Below, piece after piece: positions 2,621-2,852 of a stretch of DNA of 9,690 nucleotides. Made by a program: the position numbers and the translations under genes. Under the pieces are notes generated by a model. It was given only the letters and a program-made list of their open reading frames with translations, ran no database searches and was not told where the DNA came from. The stretch lies in IMG/VR virus record IMGVR_UViG_2551306491_000022; one strand, 5' to 3'. Source of the stretch: a virus. Lineage: Duplodnaviria > Heunggongvirae > Uroviricota > Caudoviricetes. How positions within the stretch are numbered: position 1 is the stretch's first letter; every line of letters starts with the position of its first letter.

Positions 2621-2815
2621 AAATCCGCCTCCGTTTTGATTAACGGGCATCATTATTGATCGATAAAAGTAATAGATAAATCATTTTCTACCTGAAAATC
2701 AGATTATGTTTTTTCTGATTATTCTCAGAGAGGCAAAGCCATTGACGCATTTTTGCTATTGAAGCAATATTAAGACTCGTCATCCTGGCGATAAAAACTC
2801 CTTTGTCGTGTAAAA

Positions 2816-2852
2816 GCGCCTCCGGTAACAGCAATCGGGGGCGCTTTTTTTT
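2816..2852 (+). terminator. Strong plus-strand intrinsic terminator in the leader region of the capsid operon (possible end of a small antisense/regulatory RNA)
   Basis: GCGCCTCCG(2816-2824), 11-nt loop, CGGGGGCGC(2836-2844), then TTTTTTTT(2845-2852). The 9-bp stem contains one G-U pair on the plus strand, which would be an A-C mismatch on the minus strand, and the T-run is only on the plus side. Confidence 0.5.

Follow-up and report, generated by a model that had tools for sequence, protein, structure and literature searches.

Between a packaging site and the capsid genes of a phage satellite of E. coli lies a GC-rich hairpin that is followed by a run of T residues. The question that this locus raises is which transcript the hairpin ends, and for what purpose. 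The locus is part of a stretch of viral DNA of 9,690 nucleotides, to which we refer as the window. The initial annotation of the window had proposed, as one reading, that a small plus-strand RNA of roughly 75 nt starts at a sigma-70 promoter, ends at the hairpin and, being antisense to the leader of the minus-strand capsid operon, controls capsid gene expression in cis. We analyzed the hairpin, its genomic context, its copies in other genomes and the sequences that occupy the same place in related satellites. The coordinates of the features are collected in Table 1.

Table 1. Features around the hairpin and at the two cos sites; positions are those of the window.
Feature	Position	Strand	Description
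cos site A (cassette A)	283-540	-	same cosN-like core as site B, diverged downstream part, without the hairpin (repeat D7)
First capsid-operon gene, 64 aa (probable start)	2426-2620	-	ATG at 2620, 7 nt after GGAGG
Late (capsid-module) promoter-like motif	2652-2680	-	-35 TTTATC 2680-2675, 17-nt spacer, -10 AATAAT 2657-2652
Candidate sigma-70 promoter	2742-2747 and 2766-2771	+	TTGACG, 18-nt spacer, AATATT; chance-level match
Hypothetical plus-strand RNA, ~75 nt	2778-2852	+	if the candidate promoter fires; weak 5' hairpin and terminator predicted
A4 (plus strand)	2812-2815	-	UUUU tail of the minus-strand hairpin; A3 in SCU-111
Main hairpin	2816-2844	+	5' arm GCGCCTCCG 2816-2824, loop 2825-2835, 3' arm CGGGGGCGC 2836-2844
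T8 run	2845-2852	+	U-tract of the plus-strand terminator, immediately 3' of the stem
Second plus-strand hairpin	2839-2858, then T7 2860-2866	+	GGGCGC-T8-GCGCCT; overlaps the main hairpin; -10.7 kcal/mol
cos site B (cassette B, ~2860-3088)	2888-3054	-	95.8% identity to lambdoid prophage; cosN-like core ~2992-3021
Sense terminator of the ssb (replication) operon	3051-3072	-	GCCGGAGCAATCCGGC, then T6 on the minus strand

We identify the window as a phage satellite of E. coli of the Gram-negative PICI type: it has int, regulators, a replication module, a late zone with head genes captured from phages, genes in one direction and a helper-type cos. The main genes all lie on the minus strand and comprise integrase, small regulators, DUF4222, a RepA-type helicase, SSB, the 64-aa gene, a ClpP-protease/major-capsid fusion and a 93-aa gene. 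The RefSeq annotation of near-identical islands lists the same gene content, and a Pfam search of the window identified no AlpA homologue. Layouts of Gram-negative PICIs and of helper-embedded satellites have been described (PMC6092414; bioRxiv 10.1101/2022.07.18.500453). In O157:H7 ECP19-198 a near-identical satellite is found inside the terminase large-subunit gene of a prophage, adjoining the portal gene, and this copy is a helper-embedded satellite of the kind reported by Tommasini et al. Elsewhere in the window, positions 6335-7800 appear to be a tandem duplication of ~680-750 bp (D1 at 6679/7357, D2 at 6335/7082), each copy of which has a GC-rich hairpin (6695-6721; ~7373-7399) just ahead of the start of a small plus-strand ORF. 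The 496-aa ORF that runs across the duplication (6301-7791) looks spurious, and a weak Rfam match to Atu_C8 was seen at 7632-7728 (25 bits vs 50).

The two similar cassettes of the initial annotation, A and B, are the two cos sites of the satellite. Site B matches a segment that is flanked by the lysis gene and the DUF1441 terS gene in a lambdoid prophage of O157:H7 SS17, and the homology stops just short of the ribosome-binding site of the phage terS. Both sites have the same orientation and are 2,538 bp apart; site B retains the helper-type downstream (cosB) part, while site A shares the cosN-like core alone. They mirror cos1 and cos2 of EcCICFT073, for which two cos sites per PICI have already been documented (PMC6739421). 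Lambda-type cosN cores (GGGCGGCGACCT) occur in the satellites of ATCC 25922 (contig L083, 2733-2748 and 3600-3615) and CFT073 (contig L294, ~8290-8320); the two in ATCC 25922 have opposite orientations, and their cos type differs from that of the window. Because the helper-type homology covers 2888-3054, the hairpin lies just beyond the cosB of site B, in sequence specific to the satellite. In cassette A the TTTTTTGTAA motif does stand ~40 bp from the next gene, and on this basis the region of the hairpin had been described as an insertion relative to cassette A. Since the cassettes are two cos sites, it is better described as satellite-specific sequence between cosB and the late promoter. In strain 042 (contig L001, 12490-12818) the ssb gene of the satellite is annotated as a truncated pseudogene and the hairpin has a GCGT variant. 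No transfer of this island was obtained when it was tested in a published study (PMC6092414, Table 1).

The hairpin combines a stable GC-rich stem-loop with a U-rich tract directly 3' of the stem. Eight of the 9 bp are G-C pairs, the loop has 11 nt, and the U-tract varies between 6 and 9 T in other copies. Folded as a plus-strand RNA of 41 nt, the hairpin reaches -23.6 kcal/mol (z = -6.1), a value that none of 200 shuffled sequences equalled. The ninth pair, T2821-G2839, is a wobble on the plus strand and becomes a C-A mismatch on the minus strand, where the counterpart reaches -17.4 kcal/mol (z = -2.0) and is followed by just UUUU. The energies of the core stem are -19.2 kcal/mol on the plus and -12.8 kcal/mol on the minus strand. 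Because the folding energies and the core stems of the two strands differ in this way, the strand asymmetry is real. The terminator, its G-U pair and its run of eight T residues are all present where the initial annotation had placed them. There is also no convincing plus-strand protein gene ahead of the hairpin, where we found just unsupported mechanical ORFs such as 2483-2659.

The minus-strand version of the stem is nevertheless stronger than the clear sense terminators of the satellite family, which range from -9.4 to -11.2 kcal/mol, and together with the A4 at 2812-2815 it forms a terminator in the sense direction, though a weaker one. On the plus strand, a second hairpin with its own T7 (2839-2866) had been overlooked and is predicted to act as a tandem or back-up terminator. 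Judged by its predicted structure, the element at 2816-2852 is a real intrinsic (Rho-independent) terminator, optimized for the plus strand and stable enough for both directions. It belongs to a familiar class and had so far gone unannotated.

To see how the hairpin varies we collected its copies. It is present in 144 of 5,426 complete E. coli genomes (81-100% identity); further copies come from IMG/VR and a few metagenome contigs, and the stem is the same throughout. Strains with the satellite include 042, ST130, MS6198 and O157:H7 ECP19-198. Among the 24 unique class-1 sequences used to compare variants, the stems are identical apart from two single-base variants. Scans with flanking anchors of the E. 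coli genomes, IMG/VR and the metagenomes likewise returned one stem sequence and these two variants, so no covariance model was built. As all copies are of one young E. coli lineage, conservation says little here and a covariation test is impossible. A comparison of positions 2560-2900 with 50,697 phage records gave no match, and an origin of this segment from a phage genome within that collection was rejected.

The variants themselves speak about the strand. Every variant of the hairpin is 3-7 kcal/mol more stable on the plus strand. In 042 GCGC has become GCGT, which still pairs on the plus strand, as G-U, and is mismatched on the minus strand. In SCU-111 the A4 before the stem is shortened to A3 and the second hairpin has GTGCCT in place of GCGCCT; both changes leave the plus-strand pairing in place and impair the minus-strand version. 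The exception is the CGAGGGCGC variant, found in 2 of the 24 unique class-1 sequences, which weakens the plus-strand stem. The stems of SCU-111 are intact, its loop varies and its divergence is greatest at 2776-2815, a pattern that fits a terminator, or a cis-acting RNA with free sequence, and does not fit a conserved trans-acting seed.

Next, we considered where the capsid mRNA begins. The first gene of the capsid operon is annotated with a length of 195 nt in relatives and matches phrog_4934. An alternative start at 2653 would give an ORF of 75 aa, and its ATG overlaps the predicted -10 element of the late promoter-like motif; the gene probably starts at 2620 (64 aa) and not at 2653. The 64-aa protein is conserved ahead of capsid-fusion genes in Kluyvera, Yersinia, Buttiauxella and Moellerella. 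Its pattern of a short strand and two helices suggests a ribbon-helix-helix DNA binder. The protein gave no sequence matches in Pfam or PDB, and a single-sequence AlphaFold model with two helices was of low confidence (pLDDT 65) and too weak for a fold search.

The promoter-like motif upstream of this gene is invariant in E. coli class 1 and class 2, in two Kluyvera species and in Buttiauxella. Its form across the genera is TTTA(T/C)(C/T), then 17 nt that contain TTTTA..GATC, then AAT(A/T/G)AT. We regard it as a promoter of moderate strength, probably factor-assisted, ~35-45 nt before the 64-aa gene. Together with an upstream block (TAATCT..TTTT..GATAGAAA) the motif spans 2652-2707 on the minus strand, ahead of the capsid module, and the whole may be a late promoter with an activator or operator site.

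With the promoter in this position, the capsid mRNA would start near 2645, and the putative RNA would come no closer to this start than ~130 nt. Because the conserved motif lies at 2652-2680 on the minus strand, the hairpin would be ~135 bp upstream of the late promoter and outside the capsid leader. This bears directly on the proposed antisense role. An antisense regulator in cis overlaps the sense mRNA that it regulates, and given a start near 2645 the putative RNA and the capsid mRNA do not overlap. The RNA is thus probably not antisense to the leader of the capsid operon, as the conserved motif is downstream of the hairpin in the sense direction, and cis-antisense control of capsid expression conflicts with the predicted position of the promoter. 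Overlap would need either read-through from cos or a second promoter near 2766-2795.

We then evaluated the promoter that had been assigned to the small RNA. The hexamers TTGACG and AATATT and their 18-nt spacer are indeed present; their match to a promoter is at the level of chance. In the whole window 11 promoter-like matches were observed and 11.9 expected. When 2621-2815 was shuffled with dinucleotides preserved, 19% of the shuffled sequences had a comparable match suitably placed upstream of the hairpin, counting matches of like quality positioned for an RNA body of 15-120 nt. The hexamer AATATT is palindromic and can therefore also serve as a minus-strand -10 element, with a possible -35 element TTTATC at 2795-2790.

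The A at position -11 is a key base of sigma-70 promoters. In the commonest haplotype among the 24 unique class-1 copies the candidate -10 element reads AGTATT and has lost this A; on the opposite strand this SNP yields AATACT, which is still usable. The TTGACG element is kept in 24 of 24 unique class-1 sequences, the divergent SCU-111 (81% identity) included, and SCU-111 also keeps AATATT and has lost the minus-strand -35 element. The comparative signal for the candidate promoter is thus contradictory, because the majority AGTATT loses the -11 A, yet SCU-111 retains both plus-strand hexamers.

Could the hairpin nevertheless end a small regulatory RNA gene, transcribed from 2742-2771, starting at ~2778 and acting in trans on mRNAs of the helper, the satellite or the host, or in cis on read-through transcripts? 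The strong plus-strand terminator with no ORF ahead of it speaks for such a gene, as does the U8 tail, since a long U tail is typical of Hfq-binding sRNAs. An RNA of ~75 nt is a reasonable proposal in itself and is backed by an antisense-biased terminator in the same slot of EcCICFT073-type satellites, described below. The fold of the RNA from 2778 to 2852 (-30.9 kcal/mol, z = -5.0) is driven by the terminator. The supposed body of the RNA (2776-2815) is the most diverged stretch of the whole intergenic region in SCU-111, the sole divergent copy.

The 5' arm of the hairpin offers one possible target. The segment CGCCUCCG (2817-2824) could base-pair with the ribosome-binding site of the 64-aa gene; correspondingly, the 8-mer CGCCTCCG at 2817-2824 occurs a second time on the same strand at 2626-2633. 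This complementarity may well be a coincidence, and the segment is locked inside the stem of the terminator. We found no further candidates. Duplex folding of the putative RNA against the gene start regions of the window gave nothing above chance, and a search for exact complements in the window and in one helper prophage gave 9-12 nt at most, again at the level of chance. A 12-mer in the portal gene of the helper was considered as a trans target and rejected (E ~ 1). Within the transcripts covered, those of the window and of the helper prophage, the RNA thus shows no conserved single-stranded seed with target complementarity of the kind that marks Hfq-type sRNAs.

Known RNAs were also searched for. 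In an Rfam scan at E <= 1 the only match that overlaps the hairpin was ctRNA_p42d at 2812-2854 (24.3 bits vs a threshold of 50, E = 0.11), which reflects the generic shape of a terminator alone. The Rfam models of Esr41 (RF02676), AgvB and AsxR gave no match in the window, nor did C4 and IsrK at E <= 1, and the sequence of the PasB Northern probe is absent. Identity with the known island sRNAs was rejected on these grounds and on the different map position of Esr41. None of the RefSeq matches listed has an annotated feature beneath the match, and our literature search for the hairpin sequence found no paper. Taken together with the chance-level promoter, which is damaged in the commonest haplotype, these results make a dedicated sRNA gene unlikely in our view.

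To place the hairpin in the satellite family, we examined the corresponding slot in relatives. In P169-type (class 2) E. coli satellites the slot contains GCCGGATTTTCTCCGGC-T6, read in the sense direction, and Kluyvera, Yersinia and Moellerella have their own, unrelated sense-strand hairpin terminators. A search ahead of the homologous capsid-fusion genes of other genera did not find the hairpin of the window, and we rejected the idea that it is conserved there, as the relatives have different, sense-oriented terminators. We also rejected a description of class 1 as class 2 with an inserted sRNA module: the sequence from ~2708 to the cos core is wholly unrelated between the two classes. By this comparison the slot upstream of the predicted late promoter is conserved, and the hairpin itself is not.

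A different situation was found in satellites of the ATCC 25922/EcCICFT073 type. Their hairpin, GCCCGATAAG...CTTATCGGGC, has a tail of T6-7 in the antisense and of T4 in the sense direction; it is not homologous to that of the window, is biased towards the antisense strand and lies ~110-130 nt from a perfect palindromic TATAAT (GATTATAATC). In EcCICFT073 it abuts the sense terminator of the upstream operon back-to-back, without a cos site between them. Back-to-back terminators are the usual layout where transcription units converge. The late module of these satellites (contig L083, 5709-5915; contig L294, 5250-5470) has the palindromic -10 element GATTATAATC and a sense leader hairpin with a T-run before the first gene. 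The occurrence of an antisense-favoured terminator in two unrelated satellite types is the best indirect argument that antisense transcripts arrive at this place. A divergent RNA of 110-135 nt could likewise be made in the experimentally studied PICI EcCICFT073. We rejected the protection of cos by a terminator as a general rule, given that the analogous hairpin of EcCICFT073 has no adjoining cos.

The sense terminators of P169-type E. coli, Kluyvera, Yersinia and Moellerella raise the question of whether the hairpin works mainly on the minus, coding strand. It could stop read-through from the replication operon and cos before the late promoter, or be a leaky stop that is passed by polymerase modified for antitermination, for instance by the Q protein of the helper in helper-embedded copies. 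The minus-strand stem of -12.8 kcal/mol with its UUUU tail, stronger than the stems of the relatives, is consistent with this role. In addition, some copies are located inside a late gene of a prophage, where late transcription of the helper could read in, and such embedded satellites are described as co-oriented with that gene (bioRxiv 10.1101/2022.07.18.500453). However, the G-U pair turns into a C-A mismatch on this strand, the tail has T4 and not T8, the 042 and SCU-111 variants weaken the minus version further and spare the plus version, and a clear sense terminator already follows ssb. We regard a main role on the coding strand as unlikely, to the same degree as a dedicated sRNA gene.

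Alternatively, the inverted repeat may function as DNA: it could extend cosB or serve as an operator, with the terminase small subunit, an Rpp-like protein or the 64-aa protein binding to it. It may also be a functionless remnant of recently acquired sequence. The hairpin is ~150-190 bp away from the cosN-like core, and the R2/R1 inverted repeat of lambda is found at the same distance from cosN. All copies are recent, so that their persistence alone is no proof of function. The cosB sites of PICIs are also known to differ from those of their helpers (PMC6739421). Against this, the helper-type cos homology, which ends at 2888, already contains a complete segment of cosB length; both hairpins are directly followed by T-runs and preceded by A-runs, which are hallmarks of terminators; and the analogous hairpin of EcCICFT073 has no cos beside it. 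We consider a role as DNA, or no role at all, very unlikely.

The reading that we favour, with a confidence a little short of even, is that of a plus-biased and probably bidirectional insulating terminator that likely ends a short divergent non-coding transcript. The terminator would occupy a conserved insulator slot, with the cos packaging site on one side and the capsid-module promoter on the other. We infer that plus-strand transcription reaches the hairpin: short non-coding transcripts would arise from the AT-rich late control region and be contained there, and a start near 2778 would give an RNA of ~75 nt. The stop would keep plus-strand transcripts out of cos and prevent an antisense run into the replication genes, and in the other direction it would provide a second, weaker stop for sense-strand read-through from ssb and cos. 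The small RNA would then be a by-product of divergent transcription and not an antisense regulator of the capsid leader. This reading has its own difficulties. The sole plus-strand promoter candidate is no better than expected by chance and has lost a key base in the majority haplotype, the CGAGGGCGC variant weakens the plus-strand stem, and the position of the EcCICFT073 analogue away from cos means that protecting cos is not a general purpose of such hairpins.

A bolder proposal is that late-control regions of Gram-negative PICIs carry a divergent, terminator-capped small RNA in at least two unrelated versions, one of 75 nt and one of ~110-135 nt in EcCICFT073-like satellites, which would tune the late-gene expression of satellite and helper, or packaging, during helper induction. 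We think this distinctly unlikely. Should a plus-strand RNA be made and have an effect, E. coli PICIs would possess an RNA regulator other than the P4-like immunity RNAs, and the timing of capsid and packaging functions of the satellite against its helpers would gain a further layer. If the element is an insulating terminator alone, which we hold to be more likely, it is a landmark that separates the cos site from the late promoter. It then also shows that terminators, in one orientation or the other, recur ahead of the late promoter in this family of satellites. Together with the corrected start of the first capsid-operon gene, this should be useful for annotation and for the engineering of PICI-based delivery vehicles.

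How does the element compare with known RNAs of satellites and islands? SviR is a trans-acting sRNA of the Vibrio cholerae satellite PLE that is described as conserved across PLEs and is supported by experiments, among them the mapping of RNA-RNA interactions (bioRxiv 10.1101/2022.04.08.487710). It sets a precedent for a small RNA encoded by a satellite, as had been proposed for the window. For the candidate RNA of the window, unlike SviR, neither a conserved seed nor a target was found. The Hfq-binding sRNAs of pathogenic E. coli (Esr41, AgvB, AsxR, PasA-D) are similar in being short intergenic units on mobile elements. Esr41 in particular has ~70 nt, a GC-rich palindrome and a long poly-U tail (PMC8565820); it is encoded in SpLE1 between z1181 and z1182 (PMC8565820; PMC5286369), a different locus from that of the window element. 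The P4 CI and P1 C4 RNAs are small satellite or phage RNAs that control transcription termination, and some PICIs are reported to carry immunity RNAs of this kind (Rfam C4, IsrK) in their Bro zones (bioRxiv 10.1101/2022.07.18.500453). The element of the window differs from them in its position in the late zone, not the Bro zone, and in having no repeated target sites.

As a satellite, the window resembles PICIs of the EcCICFT073 type and embedded satellites in its order of int, regulators, DUF4222, replication genes, ssb and a late zone with a capsid gene, and in its two cos sites, one of which is nearly identical to a lambdoid prophage cos. It differs from EcCICFT073 in the ClpP-protease/capsid fusion of its late zone and in its hairpin. 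A keyword search of studies of such elements (PMC6092414; PMC6739421; bioRxiv 10.1101/2022.07.18.500453) returned no passage on a terminator or an RNA between cos and the late genes.

The closest parallel for the hairpin itself is found among bacterial terminators. Bidirectional intrinsic terminators between convergent transcription units are a general bacterial feature, as seen in full-length RNA profiling of E. coli. No annotated convergent gene ends at the hairpin of the window, where the plus-strand unit would be at most a short non-coding RNA, and its strength is clearly asymmetric, the plus strand having T8 and a G-U pair and the minus strand T4 and a C-A mismatch. It shares with bidirectional terminators a GC-rich hairpin that has a run of A residues on one flank and of T residues on the opposite flank, and a predicted structure that is stable on both strands.
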